Positions 26,285-36,367 of a stretch of DNA of 64,000 bases are shown here, one piece after another; the stretch's first letter is position 1; every line of letters begins with the position of its first letter. The DNA is from Escherichia phage vB_EcoM_SQ17. The position numbers were made by a program, and so were the translations under genes. Where the stretch lies: sequence record MW882907. The stretch is one strand, 5' to 3'. The notes beneath the pieces are model-generated. The model did not search any database, was not told the DNA's origin, and saw only the letters and a list, made by a program, of their open reading frames with translations.

Positions 26285-26314
26285 ATAGTATCACACATCC
26301 ATGTGTTTGTAAAC
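26285..26314 (-). promoter_or_regulatory. T4-type early promoter (minus strand)
   Basis: Plus ATAGTA (26285-26290), 18 nt, GTAAAC (26309-26314). Confidence 0.5.
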
Positions 26315-28401
26315 TATCCTTGGACAAATTTAAACGGAACTGATTCTAAATCCATTAAAGATGCTAACAATTTCAATCCTTTAGGAGCACTAGTTTTTTC
26401 TACAAATGAGGAGAACGATACCGGCCCATCTGATTCGATTTCACCCGTCATAGCAACCACATCGCCTGTTTCCATGAGAACATCACCATCGTAAATGACA
26501 GCTTCGTCCAACTGGTCCGAGGACATAACTTCGGCTTGAATAAATTTAAGGTTGGATTCTAAACCTGCACCAGTGTCAGATGACGCATCTGTAATTTTAT
26601 TTATCTGCAAGAGAATGCCTCTAGGCAAAATAATTTCTTGCTCATTAGGGTGATTACTCAACTGTCCAGGATAAATCACGTTAACTTTATGAGCGCCATC
26701 AATAGCCCATCCAACGTTAACACGGATTTGTTCTGGTGCATGCATAGCTGTTCTTACTTGACTAGGAGAAATAGTAACACCTTCGTCATTATTATCAATG
26801 TTAAGCTCTTTGCGAACTTCTTCAGGAGCAAGTCCAAGGGCAACGTTCTCTTTAAACCCACCGAAAATAATAGGAGCTAGTGAAGTGGAAACATAGTTTC
26901 TGAAGTAGAATACCTTATTTTTAACCATTGCTTCGTAAATAGGCATTCTGATAGACTGAGCTCTATATAACGTTAGTCCTTCAGGTAAACGATCTCCATT
27001 TAAAAACGCCGAATCAAGACCATCAATAGCGCGTTTAACTTCATCTTCATCTGCAACATCGTAAAAATCTGGTTTATAACGACCTAACAGCATATTATTG
27101 ATATCGGTATACGCAGAAGAGGCATATTCACGAATAGCTCGTTTTTCAGCAACAGAGTATTGATTAGGGACCCGATTCATTGTTATATTAAAGGTGCCTC
27201 TAGCCGATTCTCGTGCATAAGTATACATCACATTAGACAAGAACGCTGATTTACGTTGTTTCCAAGTTTTTTCAGATACTTCAGCTAAAACGTCGTCAGC
27301 CAGTTGGAAATTATCACGTCTAAAATCTTCAAACCATTCGTCTTTAATAGAGTCTGCAATTTCATTTGCAGCTTCAACAAAAGCAGCTAATGCTTTAACA
27401 GATGTTGTTTTTTCAGTTTTAATTTTCTTAGCAAACTTTTCTAAAGTTGGCTTAATAACATCACCATAAGAAACTTCATCGGCAAATCTAAAGGATTCAT
27501 CAATACGATTATAAATCTTATTTTCGATATCAGCAACTAAAGTGCCTTTTGCTGTGGACGATGCTTGGGCTAGTACGATTTCATATGCTTCAGGAAGTAA
27601 TTCGGCTGTAGCTGGGCCACTAACTTCTTTAGCAGAATTTTCGTATTTCTGGAATAACTCACCTTCTTGTCGGTCAGCTTCTAAAGATTGACTTGCTGCA
27701 ATAGCACGACGAGAAATTTTAGTACGAGCAATAACAGGCTTATCTTTACGTTTTTCTTCTACAGCAGCAATAGAACCAGCGATAGCCGTTTCTTTGGTGA
27801 CCGTTTCGCCAGTCTTTTTACTCACATAAACTTCGCCAACATCAGAATCTACTTTCGTGTACAACTCTGTGTTAATGTTAGGGATGCCTTTAATATCTTC
27901 AATGTTAGCATTTTTACGAACCATCATCACATAGGTGTGTTTACCTGTGAATTGATACATTGCTGACAATACTTTAAAACGGCCACCGGTTTTAGTAGAA
28001 ACTAAACGAGCAAGAAGAGTTTGAAGTTGTTGTCCACGTCCTTTCAATTTCTTGGTAGGGAATCGGAACAGAACTGCATCCATACGAAGAGCTTTAACCT
28101 GTTCATATACTGTATTGAAAATGGTGTTGATTGCATCAATAGGAGCAGGACCAAGGCCATTTTTCAATTCAGCGAGATTACCCTTTTCAGACAGACTCAT
28201 AATAACAACATGAGCGTATTTGTCGCCAAGTTTAACTTGTTTTACAGCATCGCCTTCAGAAAGGTAAGAGAATAAGCGAACTACGATGTTTGTATCAACA
28301 TCACCAATTTTCCAGACTTGTGGAACTTTAGCTTTAGGGTTCAAATTGACGACAGGAAGACTGCCTTCAGATTCAAACACTTCATTCAATTGTTCAGACA
28401 T
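26314..28401 (-). CDS. alt: Alt ADP-ribosyltransferase (packaged, modifies host RNA polymerase)
   Basis: 695 aa (T4 Alt about 682 aa); R-S-EXE ART signature (YFRNYVSTS ... EQEIILPRG); position between gene 54 and ligase. Confidence 0.85.
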   Translation of the reverse strand: MSEQLNEVFESEGSLPVVNLNPKAKVPQVWKIGDVDTNIVVRLFSYLSEGDAVKQVKLGDKYAHVVIMSLSEKGNLAELKNGLGPAPIDAINTIFNTVYEQVKALRMDAVLFRFPTKKLKGRGQQLQTLLARLVSTKTGGRFKVLSAMYQFTGKHTYVMMVRKNANIEDIKGIPNINTELYTKVDSDVGEVYVSKKTGETVTKETAIAGSIAAVEEKRKDKPVIARTKISRRAIAASQSLEADRQEGELFQKYENSAKEVSGPATAELLPEAYEIVLAQASSTAKGTLVADIENKIYNRIDESFRFADEVSYGDVIKPTLEKFAKKIKTEKTTSVKALAAFVEAANEIADSIKDEWFEDFRRDNFQLADDVLAEVSEKTWKQRKSAFLSNVMYTYARESARGTFNITMNRVPNQYSVAEKRAIREYASSAYTDINNMLLGRYKPDFYDVADEDEVKRAIDGLDSAFLNGDRLPEGLTLYRAQSIRMPIYEAMVKNKVFYFRNYVSTSLAPIIFGGFKENVALGLAPEEVRKELNIDNNDEGVTISPSQVRTAMHAPEQIRVNVGWAIDGAHKVNVIYPGQLSNHPNEQEIILPRGILLQINKITDASSDTGAGLESNLKFIQAEVMSSDQLDEAVIYDGDVLMETGDVVAMTGEIESDGPVSFSSFVEKTSAPKGLKLLASLMDLESVPFKFVQG

Positions 28402-28456: not shown

Positions 28457-28645
28457 TTAATCCACAATCGGGAGTAAAGTACGATAAACTTCAAAATTAG
28501 GGCCTTTTTCGTACTTATCAAAATTGTCCATAAAAATATGATAGGAATCGTTATTAGGAAAATCTAATACAATTTGTGAACAAGAGGTGGAAACATCACT
28601 ACCGTCTTTATTAGTGACAACTACTGTTTCTAAATAAGCTTTCAT
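28457..28645 (-). CDS. Hypothetical small protein between ligase and alt
   Basis: Track ORF 28457..28666; probable start at internal Met overlapping ligase stop (ATGA). Confidence 0.45.
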   Translation of the reverse strand: MKAYLETVVVTNKDGSDVSTSCSQIVLDFPNNDSYHIFMDNFDKYEKGPNFEVYRTLLPIVD

Positions 28646-30138
28646 TATAAACCTGTCTGGGACCACGATCCAAATACGTCTTCAAATGAATCCGCTTCTG
28701 TTTTATCAAAACGGAACCCTTTAATAATTGGAAGGAAAATACCTACAGTACCTTCACGGCCTTTAGAATGAACCCAACCATTACATTCACAATCAGCGAT
28801 ACGTCCAATTAATTTACCTTCACGAGCTTCGGTCATTAATCGTTCACGGTCTAAATCATGACGCTCGTCTAAAGGAATAAGAACCTTTACACCGTCAACT
28901 GTTTTATGAGTTGTATCTTTAAACCCTGAACCACAATCGGTTGTAATACGACGACAACGTGATACGAGTTCGACACCACCTAATTTGTTAGGGTCTTTAG
29001 AGTGTTCATAGTATCCTACAACTTCTAAAGCGATATCAATAACTTCTTTAAATTTAATTAGGTTCTTAGAGCGTTTGTTTTCCCAATATGAATCACGGTT
29101 TTTAAGGATAATACCTTCAAGACCTTGGTCAACATATTTTTTATAAACCACTTTAGCTTCGTCAAGATTACGAACTAACTGATTTTCAATTGGCTCAATT
29201 CGCTTAAAGCCTTCAGCCATATTTTCAAGAGCAGCAAAACGAACATCGTATTTCTGACCTTTAATTTTGCCATCAGAATAGACTTCATCTAAAGGAACAT
29301 AGTCCCAGGCTTGAAGAATCATACCTTCCGCTTCTTTAGGAGAAATAGTCCCCTGAAGAGATTTATTTGCTAAACCATTTGAAGTGCTACGGTCTGCAAC
29401 TTGTACTTCTTCGGATTCTTCATTGTCACCAAATAAGAACGACAGGTCGTTTCCTGAGCTCACAGCCTTTTTAATATCGAATGAATGATAAACTAATTCA
29501 CCATCGATTAAAACCCCATTAGGGTGTCTTTCACGAGCTTCTTTAGTCATTTCCATTAGTTCATCAGCTAATAGAGTAAGTCCATGGTATTCGTTACCGG
29601 CACGAGAAAAGAATTGAACACCATCATCGCGAACTTCGGCGAAACAACGAGCACCATCTGCTTTTAATTGGGCAAATGCAGGCCATTTAATATTTTTAGT
29701 AATCAATTTCTCATCATATGCAGATGCTAACATCTGTGGTTGCAATTGAATAAGTCCAGGCCACACCTTATTAGCAATAGACACTGAAGCACCTACTTCA
29801 AGGTCGCGCATCATTACACGACGAAGGACTTCTACATCATCGGGTTTACCATCAGCGATATAACCCATGAGCTCTTTAATTGCAGCGTTACCAGTGAGTT
29901 TACGAGTGGCTAATGTGAACTCAATAAAATCCAACATGTCATCTAATTCAAGAAGTCCATACGCTTGAGACCTTTCACCCGGCCCTGGCCATTTCTTAAT
30001 ATAATACTGGATACCACGTGCATATGTTAAACGATACACACGTTCAAGTAATTTGTTGTCCTTATTTTTCTTAAGGATTTCTTGTTTTGTTTTAGTAGAA
30101 CCGATCGCAGCTATTTGGTTTAAAATATCTAAAATCAT
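28645..30138 (-). CDS. 30: ATP-dependent DNA ligase gp30
   Basis: 497 aa; adenylation motif KADGAR; N-terminus resembles T4 DNA ligase (MILKILNEIASIGSTKQK-like). Confidence 0.95.
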   Translation of the reverse strand: MILDILNQIAAIGSTKTKQEILKKNKDNKLLERVYRLTYARGIQYYIKKWPGPGERSQAYGLLELDDMLDFIEFTLATRKLTGNAAIKELMGYIADGKPDDVEVLRRVMMRDLEVGASVSIANKVWPGLIQLQPQMLASAYDEKLITKNIKWPAFAQLKADGARCFAEVRDDGVQFFSRAGNEYHGLTLLADELMEMTKEARERHPNGVLIDGELVYHSFDIKKAVSSGNDLSFLFGDNEESEEVQVADRSTSNGLANKSLQGTISPKEAEGMILQAWDYVPLDEVYSDGKIKGQKYDVRFAALENMAEGFKRIEPIENQLVRNLDEAKVVYKKYVDQGLEGIILKNRDSYWENKRSKNLIKFKEVIDIALEVVGYYEHSKDPNKLGGVELVSRCRRITTDCGSGFKDTTHKTVDGVKVLIPLDERHDLDRERLMTEAREGKLIGRIADCECNGWVHSKGREGTVGIFLPIIKGFRFDKTEADSFEDVFGSWSQTGL

Positions 30139-30404
30139 TTGATGTCCTCGATTTTGGTTACGGTTCTATTATAAGCCACTTCATCTAGAAGCGATTTCAG
30201 CGTTTTCTGATAAGTGGTAATCCATTTACCGAGACCTTCAACATAATATTCTGAAATGTAGATGAACCCTTGTTCAACACACTCTTTAAATATTTCTGCG
30301 TCTTTTACTAAACGAAACATTGGCCAGTCTCGAAAGAACATGTTAACGTGACCGTAGTCACGCGTTGTGTTTTTGCCATCTGTAATATCATGAACTACAA
30401 ACAT
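30135..30404 (-). CDS. Hypothetical protein (T4 30.1 position)
   Basis: 89-aa ORF overlapping ligase start. Confidence 0.6.
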   Translation of the reverse strand: MFVVHDITDGKNTTRDYGHVNMFFRDWPMFRLVKDAEIFKECVEQGFIYISEYYVEGLGKWITTYQKTLKSLLDEVAYNRTVTKIEDIK

Positions 30405-30413
30405 AATTAACCC

Positions 30414-31229
30414 TTAACAATTTGTAGACCAAGTCCATTTGGACGAATCTAAAGGAAAGTTTTGAATCGTCCACCACGGCTGCATATCGGTTGGTCCTGG
30501 GGTTCGCCAGGTATATGGATTCGACGGACCGCCAATTTGATTAGGCCCTGCGCCTGGACTTGTTGTACCAGATTCTTTAAGCAAATCCGCCAATCGTTTT
30601 AAAAGGTCTTCACGATCTGAATCTGAATTATGCTCGGGTGGAACCAAACGAGATTCAATATCATCCCACGTGTGTACACGTTGTGCAGTACGAGGAATGG
30701 CATCACGTTCACCACGAGCCAACCAATAAATTGGTACATTAAGAATTTCTGCCGCATGGTCACAGTGATGAGCTAAATCGTCAACGTAACAAATCACGTT
30801 ATATTTTGTTTTAGCTAGTTCGAATAATTGTTCCTTTGAAGAATCATGACCACACATCATTACTTCAGAGAAAGCGCCTGGGAACAAAGCATTCAAATTA
30901 AATTGTCTATTCAATCGAGCATCAATTGAATCACCTAGCGCCGTCACGGCTACAAAATTATAGTCTTCTTTTAGTTTATTGATAACTCGAAGAGCATCAG
31001 AATAAGGCGCTAAGTAACGAATAAAATCAGAGCGATTATATTTTTCTATTAATTGTTTACCGAGGTTATCGTCGGTATTGAATAGTTTACCAGGAGAAAT
31101 AAATTTTTCGTCCTGAATCATTTTTAAAATATGTTCTAATGGAAGATTATATTTTTGGGCAAAATAAGGAAGTCCAGATTGCCAGCTTAAACATACACCA
31201 TCAATATCAGTCAAAATAGTAGGTTTCAT
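30414..31229 (-). CDS. Predicted HAD-superfamily hydrolase (T4 30.2 position)
   Basis: 271 aa; N-terminal DIDGV motif typical of HAD phosphatases/nucleotidases. Confidence 0.6.
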   Translation of the reverse strand: MKPTILTDIDGVCLSWQSGLPYFAQKYNLPLEHILKMIQDEKFISPGKLFNTDDNLGKQLIEKYNRSDFIRYLAPYSDALRVINKLKEDYNFVAVTALGDSIDARLNRQFNLNALFPGAFSEVMMCGHDSSKEQLFELAKTKYNVICYVDDLAHHCDHAAEILNVPIYWLARGERDAIPRTAQRVHTWDDIESRLVPPEHNSDSDREDLLKRLADLLKESGTTSPGAGPNQIGGPSNPYTWRTPGPTDMQPWWTIQNFPLDSSKWTWSTNC

Positions 31230-31693
31230 AAAGAGTCTCTTAATAGGTTTAACACATCAATAAATTCAGCTTCGGTTAGTATTGTATCATCTTTTGTTAG
31301 ACCGCTAGCCATGCTGTGCTTCAAAATTTTTCCTTTAGAGGCTTGTAAGGCATCACGAAACCCCTTGTTTTGGATCGCGGCTTCAAAATATGCATTTGTG
31401 TATAATTCTTTCCACGCTTCAGAGTATCTTGAAAATGGAACTCCTAACCAGAAGAGAGTCCCACGGTCCTGAGCTCTTGCATAAGACCTTCCGGCTTGCT
31501 GTGCAGCCAATCCAGACAACCTAAATATACGTTTTTGTTGTTCAACATTTTTCACCTTACATCCTTGGAGAAATCCTTCAAGTCCTCCGAATTGAATACC
31601 ATCCATAACAAAAGGCCATTGAGCAAAGTTACTTAATGCACATGACGGCCATGGAAAATTGCTTCTTATTTCTAATTCAGACATCTTTAACAC
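31226..31693 (-). CDS. Hypothetical protein (T4 30.3 position); possible YbiA/NADAR-like domain
   Basis: 155 aa; segment LSNFAQWPF..DG..F..EG.LQ resembles NADAR core; low certainty. Confidence 0.5.
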   Translation of the reverse strand: MLKMSELEIRSNFPWPSCALSNFAQWPFVMDGIQFGGLEGFLQGCKVKNVEQQKRIFRLSGLAAQQAGRSYARAQDRGTLFWLGVPFSRYSEAWKELYTNAYFEAAIQNKGFRDALQASKGKILKHSMASGLTKDDTILTEAEFIDVLNLLRDSL

Positions 31694-31895
31694 TTATAAT
31701 TTCAATATCAGCCCAATGGCCGTATCCAGGTATACGGTCTTCGATAGATAAATTTCCGCCATTTTTAGGTATTTTAATTGACGTAACGTATGGTTCTAAA
31801 CGGTTTTCTGAATAATATGGAAAAACGTCTGTTACACGATAAGTAACTTCGATCATTTCCGTACCAAACAATTTCCGGATTAATTTATTCAACAT
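31677..31895 (-). CDS. Hypothetical protein (30.3'-like)
   Basis: 72-aa ORF in operon with short overlaps. Confidence 0.5.
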   Translation of the reverse strand: MLNKLIRKLFGTEMIEVTYRVTDVFPYYSENRLEPYVTSIKIPKNGGNLSIEDRIPGYGHWADIEIISVKDV

Positions 31896-32082
31896 GTTTC
31901 AACCCTTTAATAGGAGATAACTCTTTACCCATACGTATGTCAGAAGTCCCATCAACCCATTGAACAGCATACGCTTCATTGATAATTCCAGCAGTGGTTT
32001 TAAATTCACGGAGAACTTTAAAAATCATCCCAGGAATTCCAACACCTTTTAATTGAACTGTTTGTGCTATTAAAAATTTCAT
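31885..32082 (-). CDS. Hypothetical protein (30.4-like)
   Basis: 65-aa ORF. Confidence 0.5.
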   Translation of the reverse strand: MKFLIAQTVQLKGVGIPGMIFKVLREFKTTAGIINEAYAVQWVDGTSDIRMGKELSPIKGLKHVE

Positions 32083-32136
32083 ATTTTTCCACTTACTAAA
32101 GAAATCATTATACTCTAATCCGTCCTTGGATATAAA

Positions 32137-32421
32137 CTACTTAACGAAATTAATTTCTACCGGATGAACAACAGGTTGAGCAGTGATATATTGAGTAATT
32201 GCTTTCAAGACTAGAGCTTCAGACCCAGGATTTTTCTCAACGAATTCACGTGCTTGGTTATGAGCTTCAAGTTCACTTAGTAAACCACTTCGTTGGCATC
32301 CACGGTCTTGAGTACCCTGTTCAGATAAAAAGACGACGATGTATTTTTCTTCATCGTCATACGGTTTAGACGGTTGAGCAAATGTTCCTTTACTTCCAAA
32401 AGGAGAGTTATGACGCCGCAC
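32137..32421 (-). CDS. Hypothetical protein; overlaps upstream ORF by 145 nt in another frame
   Basis: 94-aa ORF; unusual long overlap with 32277..32753. Confidence 0.4.
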   Translation of the reverse strand: MRRHNSPFGSKGTFAQPSKPYDDEEKYIVVFLSEQGTQDRGCQRSGLLSELEAHNQAREFVEKNPGSEALVLKAITQYITAQPVVHPVEINFVK

Positions 32422-32753
32422 ACGCCGTGAGGAGTTTCAACCTTCGTATATTCGTGTGGACCATTTTTCTTAGTTTCTTGATGTGGAACTTCGTAGACCT
32501 TAGGGTTAGGACATTCAATAAAATGCTCATCTAAATCGGTCGAGAATATTAAAGTAAAACAATTACTAAATTTACCAACACCTGCCTGATAAATTTTACC
32601 TTCAGAAGTTCTAATTTCACAAACCGAGCCGGCATCAGTAACTTCTAAAACTTCAAAAGGCTCGATAAGGTCATATGAGAACATGTTTTTAAGGCGTGGA
32701 GTAATATCCCCATTTTTAAAATTCATTTTATAAAAAGTATTAACTTTAAACAT
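32277..32753 (-). CDS. Hypothetical protein (30.5/30.6 region)
   Basis: 158-aa ORF. Confidence 0.5.
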   Translation of the reverse strand: MFKVNTFYKMNFKNGDITPRLKNMFSYDLIEPFEVLEVTDAGSVCEIRTSEGKIYQAGVGKFSNCFTLIFSTDLDEHFIECPNPKVYEVPHQETKKNGPHEYTKVETPHGVCGVITLLLEVKEHLLNRLNRMTMKKNTSSSFYLNRVLKTVDANEVVY

Positions 32754-32788
32754 AATTTCCTCAGTGGGAGCCGAAGCTCCCAGTTAAA

Positions 32789-33154
32789 TTAGATATCGAA
32801 TTCGTTAAGAACTACATCAAAGATTGCTTCCAGGTGTTCAGGTTTAGCTCGGTTGCTCAGGATATGACGAATCCAAGTTTTAACCAGAAGTTTACGATTA
32901 ACACCATTCCAGAAAGGATGAGTACCTAAATCACGTTGACGGAAATCATCATCTAATGCAATTTTGAAGTTGGAACCTTCCATCGTGATTGAAACCGTGA
33001 TGCCATTTTCAAATCGCATATAAACGTAATTAGGAGTCATATACTGCTCAATTTCGCATACTGAGCCGTTATTATGCTTCCATAAGCAAATTGTATCGAT
33101 AGAACCAGCAATACCGTTAGAAACATATTTACGTTCGAAGTTGATGTAGTTCAT
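32789..33154 (-). CDS. Hypothetical protein (30.7-like)
   Basis: 121-aa ORF with early promoter upstream. Confidence 0.55.
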   Translation of the reverse strand: MNYINFERKYVSNGIAGSIDTICLWKHNNGSVCEIEQYMTPNYVYMRFENGITVSITMEGSNFKIALDDDFRQRDLGTHPFWNGVNRKLLVKTWIRHILSNRAKPEHLEAIFDVVLNEFDI

Positions 33155-33195
33155 TTTATTCTCCAGATGTTTAAGTTGTTTGTTGGTACAAGTCT

Positions 33196-33224
33196 ATAGT
33201 AACACATCCTACAGGAGAGTAAAC
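33196..33224 (-). promoter_or_regulatory. T4-type early promoter (minus strand)
   Basis: Plus ATAGTA, 17 nt, GTAAAC. Confidence 0.5.
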
Positions 33225-33249
33225 ATCTTTTTTAAACTTTTTCTGCCCT

Positions 33250-33279
33250 AAACGCACAAAAGGGAGACCGAAGTCTCCC
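33250..33279 (-). terminator. Stem-loop terminator (GGGAGAC-CGAA-GTCTCCC) on minus strand
   Basis: Minus strand: hairpin followed by TTTTGTGCGTTT. Confidence 0.65.
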
Positions 33280-33284
33280 TAAAA

Positions 33285-33464
33285 TTATGCAACAACCTTT
33301 CCAAAACGAGAAGCATCATCTCGAAGAACTGCACGTGCTCTGCGCATGATCTTCTCAACTGTTTGATTAATACGAGAGTTCGACCCACGCTTGTATCCAG
33401 CGCGTTTAGAGGTACCATCAACTTTCTTTTCTACTGCTTTCTTTGCTTTAGCTTGTTTTGCCAT
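33285..33464 (-). CDS. Hypothetical small basic protein (59 aa; not in supplied ORF track)
   Basis: Hand translation MAKQAKAKKAVEKKVDGTSKRAGYKRGSNSRINQ...; Lys/Arg-rich; followed by terminator. Confidence 0.45.
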   Translation of the reverse strand: MAKQAKAKKAVEKKVDGTSKRAGYKRGSNSRINQTVEKIMRRARAVLRDDASRFGKVVA

Positions 33465-33732
33465 TATAAATTCTCTTTAAATGAAAATGCAGGACTTATT
33501 GACATTGCCTGCTCAAGCCCTCAAGGGGAACATAGGTTTTGGATATTTAACGACAGGATAACCATAAACCCGTCATCATACCGACCACGACTTAGACAGA
33601 TAACCTTTTTCTGACGCGTGATAGTACAAAATACATTCAAGAGGTACACCGTAAAATTGTCGGGGCGGTACTTCTAAAACATATCGATTCGCAAATCGAT
33701 AATCAGACAATTCGACGGCTCCTCGATTTAAC

Positions 33733-33981
33733 TTACTTCAGGGTAATAACAAAATGACGAACTGCTTTACGTGCTGCAGAAGCCAGAGGCTTAGCATATT
33801 TCAATTCATCTTTCTGGACCAGGATATCGCGAAGATCGGCTTGTGCTGGATTCAGATGTTTGAAATACTGTAAGATTTCAAGAGCTTCGGCTTCAACATC
33901 AATAGATGCGCCGTAATTGTCATGGCCATTATTCCATGCATGGCGTTGCAGTTCAAGAGCGTGTTGTAATTGTTTAATCAT
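33733..33981 (-). CDS. rIII: rIII lysis inhibition accessory protein
   Basis: 82 aa, same as T4 RIII; position between 30.x genes and gene 31. Confidence 0.85.
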   Translation of the reverse strand: MIKQLQHALELQRHAWNNGHDNYGASIDVEAEALEILQYFKHLNPAQADLRDILVQKDELKYAKPLASAARKAVRHFVITLK

Positions 33982-34097
33982 TTTAAATTCTCAATTCGAG
34001 ATAATATTTAGTAGCCACGTTCTTCTGAATTTCACTTTCTTTCGACAAGTCTCTCAGTTGTAGGCTACCGCTTAGAAGAGTGTTCTCTTCATATAGT

Positions 34098-34105
34098 TAT
34101 TTATA
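34098..34105 (-). promoter_or_regulatory. Late promoter core (TATAAATA on minus strand) upstream of rIII
   Basis: Plus-strand TATTTATA. Confidence 0.5.
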
Positions 34106-34438
34106 TCACTTATAAAGACATGGAATAGCTTTATAGTGGCATGTTACGAATTTCTGTTTAATTTCTTTAGGTTGTTTAAGACCTAAAGCCACAAATGGAT
34201 GTGGAACATTTCGAATTTGTCCAACTGGTAGTGGAGTCAAATCACCGACTTCAACAAAACCTTCAGGAACATCAGGACCTACAGAATGAACTACACATAG
34301 TTCAGGAACTTCACCTTGAACACGTTTACCAATCACAAGTCCTGATTCTGTAACTTCTTCATCACCTGCTTGAGCGGGTTCAGAAACCAGAATGACATAT
34401 TCACCAACAGCACGAATTGGGAGTTGTACTTCAGACAT
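34106..34438 (-). CDS. 31: Co-chaperonin gp31 (GroES analogue)
   Basis: 110 aa; near-identical to recalled T4 gp31 ([34 protein letters not shown]). Confidence 0.97.
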
Positions 34439-34468
34439 CTTATTTCCTTGTTGTTTGACGATAGATTA

Positions 34469-34493
34469 ATAATATCATACTATTCGTAAAGCA
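34469..34493 (-). promoter_or_regulatory. T4 middle promoter (MotA box TGCTTTA + -10) upstream of gene 31
   Basis: Minus strand atatGCTTTAcgaatagtatgaTATTAT. Confidence 0.5.
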
Positions 34494-34495
34494 TA

Positions 34496-34804
34496 TTACA
34501 TAAGAAGCAAACTTTCCACCGGAGTACCATCAACCGAAATTACTTTATCAAGGCGGAAAGAACGCCACTGACCTAACTTGGTGTCGAATGCTCGAACTGA
34601 TTCACGAGGTTCATAACGAACTTCTGTTGCTGGATTGTTATTTTCATATTTGACTTCAAGTTCATCGCGCGAAGCAAACATAGTGCGTACCTCGCCGTTA
34701 GCCTTTTCAAATACAACACAATGAACGCCTACAGACAGAATAGTTTTAATACGTTCACGAAGAACCATAGTTTCTTGTTCAGTTAAAATCATATTATTCA
34801 CCAC
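34496..34804 (-). CDS. Hypothetical protein (T4 31.1 position)
   Basis: 102-aa ORF between cd and gene 31. Confidence 0.6.
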   Translation of the reverse strand: MVNNMILTEQETMVLRERIKTILSVGVHCVVFEKANGEVRTMFASRDELEVKYENNNPATEVRYEPRESVRAFDTKLGQWRSFRLDKVISVDGTPVESLLLM

Positions 34805-35375
34805 AAAAGTTTCGGATTTGTTCCCAATTCAGAGAACGAAGATTATTACGAGAGTACTGAATTACTTCAATACCGGCTTGTTTTAGAATGTCTGCCCAAT
34901 TTTCAGGAGATCGATCGTATAATTCTGCGTATACAACCTTTTTAATACCTGACTGAGTAATAGCTTTAGTGCAATCAGGACATGGAGAAAGCGTCGTATA
35001 TAACGTAGCACCTTCAATAGAATTACCTTTACGAGCTGCAAACAAAATTGCATTCAATTCTGCATGGATTTCATTATTAGCAGACCATGCACTATGAGCG
35101 GCCCGATGTTCTTTAGCCAAAACAAAATTATCTGCCCGTCCAAATGCTGTAGTGCCTTCTTTATGTCCAGCAACGATGACCGGGCTTGGTTTATTCTTCA
35201 ACCAACCATTTTCGGATGCATGTTCACAACAGTTAACGCCACCTGCTGGTGAGCCATTATATCCAGTAGAGATAATGCGTCCATCTTTTTCAATGACGGC
35301 ACCAACTTTCCATGAACAACATTTTGATTCTTGAGAAATCAGATATGCAATCTGAAGGTATGTGCTAGCTTTCAT
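34794..35375 (-). CDS. cd: dCMP deaminase
   Basis: 193 aa as T4 Cd; zinc-binding deaminase motifs HAELNAI and SPCPDC. Confidence 0.95.
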   Translation of the reverse strand: MKASTYLQIAYLISQESKCCSWKVGAVIEKDGRIISTGYNGSPAGGVNCCEHASENGWLKNKPSPVIVAGHKEGTTAFGRADNFVLAKEHRAAHSAWSANNEIHAELNAILFAARKGNSIEGATLYTTLSPCPDCTKAITQSGIKKVVYAELYDRSPENWADILKQAGIEVIQYSRNNLRSLNWEQIRNFCGE

Positions 35376-36367
35376 TATTGAACCTTATTAATATAAGTTA
35401 ACAGCTCTTTAGTTTGTTCCCAACTGATGCACGCATCGGTAACGGAAACGCCATAGGACATATTATCAGAAATTTTTTGATTTCCTTCATGTAGGAATGA
35501 TTCTATCATAATTCCTTTGACCAAATCATTAGCTGCTAAATTTTTACCAATACCAATTTGATTGCTATAATACCCATCAGCGTTTGCATGGCTACAGTCA
35601 ACCATTACATAATGATTCAGACCTACTGCCCTTGCTTTGTTAGAAGCTTCTTGAATATCAGAAGAATGATAGTTCGGGCCGTTAGTCCCGCCACGCAATA
35701 CGATATGCGTATTCTGATTACCTTCAGCTTCAACAATGCCTACAGTACCATCGACGTCCATACCCATATACCGATGAGGCCAGGCGGCACTATACATCGC
35801 GTCTGTAGCTACTTTAATAGAACCATTGGTTGCGTTCTTGAAGCCTACGCACATCGGTAGACCTGAAGCAATTTCACGATGTGTCTGACTTTCAGTCGTA
35901 CGGGCGCCAATAGCAACCCATGAGAAAATACCAGAAAGATACTTAATCGTGAATGGGTCTAATACTTCAGTTGCTAATGGAAGTCCCATACGTAGAAGTT
36001 TACGACACAATGTTCGTGCAACTATAAGACCGTGGTTCATATCAAAACTTCCGTCAAGATATGGATCATTTACAAGACCTTTCCAACCTACGGTAGTTCG
36101 AGGCTTTTCAAAATAAACGCGCATCACTAACAGAACATTAGGAAGATGAGTTTGAAGTTCAGCCAGACGTTTGCCGTATTCAACAGCAGCAATAGGGTCA
36201 TGAATTGAACAAGGACCTACAACAATAAGTTTGCGTGGGTCTTCACCATTCATAATCGAATTAACTTGTTCGCGATGAGAAGCCACTTGTGATGCGTAAG
36301 CTTCCGACAAAGGAATAATCTCAGCCAGTTCTTTTGGAGAAATAAGTTTTCTGATGACAGGTAACAT
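35375..36367 (-). CDS. 3-deoxy-D-arabino-heptulosonate-7-phosphate (DAHP) synthase, class I (AroG/AroF/AroH-like), N-terminally short
   Basis: 330 aa; conserved class-I DAHPS blocks GPCSIHDP, KPRTTVGWKGL, GARTTESQ.HRE, D.SHAN; RBS AAGGA upstream; stop overlaps cd start (TAATG). Confidence 0.85.
   Translation of the reverse strand: MLPVIRKLISPKELAEIIPLSEAYASQVASHREQVNSIMNGEDPRKLIVVGPCSIHDPIAAVEYGKRLAELQTHLPNVLLVMRVYFEKPRTTVGWKGLVNDPYLDGSFDMNHGLIVARTLCRKLLRMGLPLATEVLDPFTIKYLSGIFSWVAIGARTTESQTHREIASGLPMCVGFKNATNGSIKVATDAMYSAAWPHRYMGMDVDGTVGIVEAEGNQNTHIVLRGGTNGPNYHSSDIQEASNKARAVGLNHYVMVDCSHANADGYYSNQIGIGKNLAANDLVKGIMIESFLHEGNQKISDNMSYGVSVTDACISWEQTKELLTYINKVQ

Follow-up and report, generated by a model that had tools for sequence, protein, structure and literature searches.

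A short minus-strand gene in the gene-30 region of Escherichia phage vB_EcoM_SQ17 is labelled as a hypothetical protein in every annotated record that we examined, including those of RefSeq T4, RB69, and phi25-307. The question that it raises is whether its product is an enzyme of ADP-ribose metabolism and, if so, what that enzyme would do during infection. We analysed a stretch of 64,000 nucleotides from this phage (sequence record MW882907), referred to here as the window, to which all coordinates refer. An original prediction made from the letters of the window had placed a 155-aa open reading frame (ORF) with a NADAR-like motif at the 30.3 position, and had suggested a role against ADP-ribosylating defence systems or in cooperation with the phage's own Alt ADP-ribosyltransferase.

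Gene 30.3 and its translation start

The window ORF list contains a minus-strand ORF that encodes 155 aa from a GTG codon (31226..31693, minus strand), as originally described. We take this ORF to be a genuine gene, with a match far above chance, because its product matches the Pfam family PF08010 (Phage_30_3) with an E-value of 1.2e-68 and the gene is carried by 687 phage records (at least 80% nucleotide identity). The PF08010 match scored 229.7 bits, which exceeds the gathering threshold of 36 bits, and covered 137 of the 138 profile positions. PHROG 652 also matched the protein (E = 1e-51).

The start codon is most likely an ATG at 31684 and not the upstream GTG, giving a product of 152 aa, because the gene is annotated in this way in T4, RB69, and phi25-307 and because homologues begin at this position. 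The GTG lies three codons upstream of the ATG, within the 3' end of gene 30.4. These three in-frame codons (GTG TTA AAG, 31685..31693, minus strand) are probably untranslated as part of 30.3. With the corrected start, the coding sequence of gene 30.3, or adfN, occupies 31226..31684 (minus strand; 152 aa plus stop codon) and is predicted to encode a stand-alone NADAR-domain ADP-ribosylglycohydrolase. Its stop codon overlaps the start codon of gene 30.2 in an ATGA junction (31226..31229, minus strand) that is common to 14 T-even-like loci.

T4 has an annotated internal out-of-frame ORF, 30.3' (75 aa), which corresponds to 31321-31548 (minus strand) of the window. Here the frame is split by a stop codon into pieces of 34 aa and 24 aa. 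We rejected 30.3' as a conserved second product because of this broken frame, and its status as a conserved protein-coding gene appears unlikely.

Membership of the NADAR superfamily

The segment on which the NADAR/YbiA-like domain call had been based, LSNFAQWPFVMDGIQFGGLEGFLQGCK, is present in the 30.3 translation at residues 17-43 (T4 numbering; window 31556-31636). It forms an N-terminal NADAR core motif, L17-K43 (LSNFAQWPF..DG...LEGFLQGCK; 31556..31636, minus strand), which is aligned to residues 29-55 of YbiA.

The most direct check that had been proposed, a search with the curated NADAR HMM (PF08719), gave no match to the window sequence: hmmscan against Pfam at E ≤ 10 returned PF08010 only. 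PF08719 has a gathering threshold of 35.1 bits and is an operational model, not a definition of the superfamily. It matched 16 of 64 relatives of 30.3 at E ≤ 0.01. The scores of the relatives examined (21-27 bits) were under the gathering threshold, and in multidomain relatives the sub-threshold matches span almost the whole NADAR profile. On its own, the direct PF08719 test would therefore have led us wrongly to dismiss the NADAR assignment.

Profile and fold comparisons did reveal the link. A family profile built from eight sequences identified E. coli YbiA (PDB 2b3w) among PDB sequences (E = 4e-4), and the aligned stretch was the quoted motif. A profile of 64 sequences searched against the same set recovered YbiA more weakly (E = 0.0027) and did not recover 8bau or 8bat, both of which were reached by fold comparison only. 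Alignment of the 64-member profile with YbiA using hhalign gave a probability of 92.5% (E = 5e-7) across residues 15-122. The AlphaFold2 model of 30.3 had a mean pLDDT of 95.1 and a pTM of 0.90. Together with the matches of relatives to PF08719 and the catalytic residues described below, these comparisons support gp30.3 of the window as a NADAR-superfamily protein with a YbiA-like fold, and the domain call was right.

The gp30.3-type family comprises 1,381 clusters at 50% identity (E ≤ 1e-3). Bioinformatic work of 2012, cited in PMC11543638, defined the NADAR superfamily and already set apart phage NADARs with a last-strand histidine; according to PMC11825919, T4 30.3 had been listed as a phage NADAR in an earlier bioinformatic survey. 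In metagenomic sequences we observed gp30.3-type NADAR domains fused to BspA-type leucine-rich repeats (LRR_5) or to an FtsW/RodA-like membrane domain, as well as tandem copies (P0245, P0253, P0248, P0130, and P0129). The portions of the NADAR literature compared here make no mention of these fusions or of tandem NADAR copies.

Conservation of the catalytic residues

Residue conservation was counted over 80 viral loci and the window sequence. Glu36 (codon 31577-31579, minus strand) and Lys43 (codon 31556-31558, minus strand) are invariant in all 81 sequences, and both the profile match and the hhalign alignment place them opposite E48 and K55 of YbiA. His123 (codon 31316..31318, minus strand) is found in all 80 of the homologues that cover the position. 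It lies in the last β-strand (residues 120-123 of the model) and stands opposite YbiA E125 on a gap-free extension of the hhalign alignment, a sequence-based equivalence.

These positions correspond to residues of known importance. The glutamate and the lysine are reported to be essential in the E. coli C7 NADAR (E88 and K95) and in the Phytophthora NADAR, PnNADAR (E43 and K50) (PMC11543638). At the third catalytic position, which lies in the last strand, the YbiA family is described as having a glutamate and DarT1-linked NADARs an aspartate (D171 in E. coli C7) (PMC11543638), both replaced by His123 in the window protein, and a histidine at this site is the reported hallmark of phage NADARs of the gp30.3 type (PMC11543638, PMC11125620). 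In T4 AdfN, the substitutions E36A and K43A are reported to impair the protein, although in vivo they abolish its function only in part (PMC11825919). The conserved catalytic Glu/Asp residues anticipated for a NADAR domain were thus found in part: Glu36 is present and invariant, but the third position is a histidine, neither Glu nor Asp.

The window allele compared with those of T4 and RB69

The window protein is identical to T4 gp30.3 (NP_049816) at 146 of 152 residues (96%), with no gaps. The six substitutions (P11R, K51R, R55G, E89P, I120V, and M124I) are conservative or located at the surface, and none is catalytic. The last 28 residues are the same as those of T4, and the C-terminal α-helix (residues 138-151 in the model; 31232..31273, minus strand) is intact. 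At the DNA level the genes are 89.8% identical, with 33 synonymous and six nonsynonymous codon differences. The pattern of substitution clearly points to purifying selection on 30.3, because the nucleotide divergence of approximately 10% from T4 is mostly synonymous. Very recent transfer was weighed as another source of the close identity to T4; the divergence speaks for selection, although the 3' half of the gene is unusually similar in DNA.

The closest genomes are not members of Tequatrovirus but Mosigvirus phages, the genus of RB69 (phi25-307 is ~97% identical over 16 kb). In RB69, an additional T in 30.3 brings a TGA stop codon into frame early, and the resulting CDS of 137 aa lacks the last 15 residues. 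A three-way DNA alignment showed that this extra T is present in RB69 only and is absent from the window and T4. RB69 is reported to be sensitive to DarTG1, with the extra T leading to the premature stop and the loss of the last helix (PMC11825919). As the window allele is intact, we predict by analogy that the window phage is DarTG1-resistant and would form plaques on hosts with this system, unlike its relative RB69.

An early-terminating gp30.3 homologue was also observed in another T4-like phage (L077:6001-6408, on a 173,276-bp IMG/VR contig). This product is 136 aa in length and most of its C-terminal helix is gone. The early end resembles the RB69 loss-of-function allele, which suggests recurrent inactivation.

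The gene-30 block

Around 30.3 the genes follow the order of the T4 gene-30 block (alt, alt.1, ligase, 30.1, 30.2, 30.3, 30.4, 30.5, and 30.7), and the series alt-30-30.1-30.2-30.3-30.4-30.5 is arranged as in T4 and RB69. An Alt homologue (26314-28401, minus strand; PF03496, E = 4e-28) lies 2.8 kb from 30.3, consistent with the distance of about 3 kb noted in the original prediction. The DNA ligase (gene 30) is located at 28645-30138, gene 30.1 belongs to DUF3045, and gene 30.2 occupies 30414-31229 (minus strand). No DarT family was found among the neighbours of 30.3, gp30.2 (HAD fold) and gp30.4, and the nearest ADP-ribosyltransferase is Alt (PF03496).

Conservation across this block is uneven. 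Identity to T4 is 96% for gp30.3, 64% for the ligase, and 41% for Alt, making gp30.3 an island of conservation between genera. Relative to T4-like loci such as L003, gp30.7 is 97% identical, gp30.4 ~53%, and gp30.2 ~74%. Over the 3' half of 30.3, the DNA of the window, RB69, and T4 (L001) hardly differs. The mosaic conservation over 28645-31684 may reflect a hotspot of recombination or a segment that has been exchanged. A promoter and terminator scan of 30000-34500 yielded 16 hits versus 13.0 ± 4.1 in shuffled sequence, which is no excess.

Two further loci in the window are of note. At 32137-32753 (minus strand), the position occupied by 30.6 in T4, two overlapping ORFs of 158 aa and 94 aa correspond to the first and second halves of phrog_17531 (204 positions). 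Comparison with the intact 204-aa gene of phi25-307 revealed a 1-nt deletion near 32420 (GGCGTG-TG versus GGCGTGATG). This gene is therefore frameshifted, which may reflect a pseudogene or a sequencing error. At 35375-36367 (minus strand), directly upstream of the dCMP deaminase gene (cd, 34794-35375), lies a gene for a 330-aa DAHP synthase (PF00793, E = 8e-75), annotated as aroF in phi25-307. No DAHP synthase gene is present at the corresponding position in T4. It is a shikimate-pathway auxiliary metabolic gene in the lineage of the window phage.

A predicted role in counter-defence against DarTG1

The T4 orthologue is well studied. T4 30.3 was renamed adfN (anti-DarT factor NADAR) by Johannesman et al. 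(Nat Commun 2025; PMC11825919), where the DarTG1 resistance of T-even phages was mapped to 30.3 and the gene was reported to be required by T4 and able on its own to rescue RB69. Protection against DarTG1 by 30.3/adfN is reported for both T4 and T2 (PMC11825919; bioRxiv 10.1101/2025.11.20.689424), and in a T4 transposon screen insertions in 30.3/adfN were lost specifically on DarTG1 hosts (bioRxiv 10.1101/2025.11.20.689424). In vitro, T4 AdfN was found by dot blot to de-ADP-ribosylate DarT1-modified DNA (PMC11825919), and purified T4 gp30.3 is reported to remove ADP-ribose from guanosine in DNA and not from thymidine (PMC11125620). AdfN is described as not binding DarT1 and as less active upon C-terminal truncation (PMC11825919). 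It is reported to counter DarTG1 and not DarTG2. Uninfected cells are not saved from DarT1 by AdfN, which takes full effect only in T-even infections (PMC11825919, PMC11125620). The role against ADP-ribosylating defence that had been proposed for the window gene, with DarTG named, matches these experiments on a 96%-identical protein. Counter-defence by the gp30.3 family of phage proteins has already been characterised, and the window gene is one of its ordinary members, with an intact frame. The result is not new; the gene can be named adfN, and the practical value lies in annotation and prediction.

We estimate a probability of roughly 93% that the window gene is the orthologue of T4 30.3/adfN and encodes a stand-alone NADAR hydrolase that clears guanine-ADP-ribose from phage DNA in opposition to DarTG1. 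In the window, this identity is based on orthology, the NADAR fold, the catalytic residues, the intact reading frame, and purifying selection; from these we infer, by analogy, that the allele would act like the T4 protein. Under the proposed mechanism, host DarTG1 would sense infection and the DarT1 toxin would ADP-ribosylate guanines in the phage DNA, blocking replication. AdfN would hold the ADP-ribose through Lys43 at the phosphates and through Glu36 and His123, placed about the distal ribose, and would hydrolyse the N-glycosidic bond that joins C1'' of the ribose to N2 of the guanine. The DNA would be restored to its unmodified state and replication could proceed. AdfN would in this way operate as an orphan antitoxin-like enzyme that does not bind the toxin.

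Other functions have been proposed or can be envisaged for a protein of this fold. Iyer et al. 2022 (PMC9503650) put forward, on contextual grounds, a role for phage NADARs in degrading soluble molecules derived from ADP-ribose, such as immune signalling nucleotides or toxic ADP-ribose derivatives generated by host TIR, sirtuin, or ART systems. The NADAR pocket does recognise free ADP-ribose (8bau is an ADP-ribose complex), and such an activity could be an additional one. As the main role of 30.3 in place of DNA repair we consider it quite improbable, given that the direct genetics and biochemistry reported for the T4 orthologue concern DNA de-ADP-ribosylation and DarTG1 counter-defence (PMC11825919). 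The presence of Alt in the same gene block brings up another role, in which 30.3 would cooperate with the phage ADP-ribosyltransferases Alt and ModA/ModB or reverse their action, for example by erasing off-target marks. The T4 record, however, annotates Alt as a mono-ADP-ribosyltransferase that acts on proteins, whereas AdfN was assayed on DNA and the NADARs tested are reported to take guanine-ADP-ribose DNA and not thymine-ADP-ribose (PMC11125620). Alt and gp30.3 are also out of step in their conservation (41% versus 96% identity to T4), and the phenotype of a T4 30.3 deletion is specific to DarTG1 hosts. The cooperation with Alt raised in the original prediction thus found no support, and this role is very improbable.

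It is extremely unlikely that 30.3 is a metabolic N-glycosidase of the YbiA type acting on intermediates of the riboflavin pathway. gp30.3 does have the same fold as E. coli YbiA, which is annotated as 'N-glycosidase YbiA', and an NCBIfam search with 30.3 returned a faint match to TIGR02464. This match was the only trace obtained, and its 12.9 bits are far under the cut-off of 73.7 bits. Furthermore, the glutamate that defines the YbiA family is His123 in gp30.3, and the DNA substrate demonstrated for the T4 orthologue counts against a role in the riboflavin pathway. Removal of guanine-linked ADP-ribose from phage DNA remains our preferred reading.

gp30.2 and possible coupling to AdfN

gp30.2, the product of the gene that overlaps the 30.3 stop codon, has no Pfam match, and a profile search of PDB sequences found nothing. 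Its invariant residues include a HAD-type DxD motif (D8-x-D10), K132, and D151. The AlphaFold2 model has a pLDDT above 90 for residues 1-190, followed by approximately 70 disordered C-terminal residues rich in Trp, Pro, and Gly. A Foldseek search with this model retrieved HAD-superfamily hydrolases, the best being a 5'(3')-deoxyribonucleotidase (E = 2.6e-8). Judged from its model, gp30.2 is a HAD-fold, DxD-motif phosphatase-like protein that was previously unannotated.

One could imagine that gp30.2 is the phage-specific partner needed for the full action of AdfN in T-even infections, perhaps by removing the ADP-ribose or nucleotide product once it is released, or by recruiting AdfN. Linkage of 30.3 and 30.2 was found in 20 of the 80 viral loci, with other genes in between in five of the 20. 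Functional coupling is speculative, because the linkage is confined to enterobacterial T4-like phages. In the text on the screen of T4 transposon insertions on DarTG1 hosts, adfN is named and 30.2 is not (bioRxiv 10.1101/2025.11.20.689424). We consider it highly doubtful that gp30.2 is such a partner.

Comparison with known NADAR proteins

T4 AdfN is the closest characterised counterpart of the window protein. The two have the same length (152 aa), the same neighbours, the same overlaps with 30.4 (8 nt) and 30.2 (4 nt), the same residues at E36, K43, and H123, and the C-terminal helix. They differ by six substitutions, and the window gene sits in a Mosigvirus-like genome at 89.8% nucleotide identity. 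The RB69 gene shares the genus-level background and near-identical DNA, but its product is truncated to 137 aa whereas that of the window is intact.

A further comparison is with DarG1 proteins (the BC4488 family, including the Geobacter lovleyi NADAR, 8bat, and the E. coli C7 NADAR). Unlike these, gp30.3 of the window is an orphan without an adjoining DarT gene, carries His123 where DarG1 has an aspartate in the last strand, and is 152 aa in length compared with 219 aa for the 8bat chain. DarG1 is an antitoxin, whereas T4 AdfN is reported not to act as one in uninfected cells (PMC11825919). E. coli YbiA (2b3w) and the Phytophthora NADAR (8bau) are ~19-20% identical to gp30.3, have a glutamate in the last strand where gp30.3 has a histidine, and belong to another biological context.
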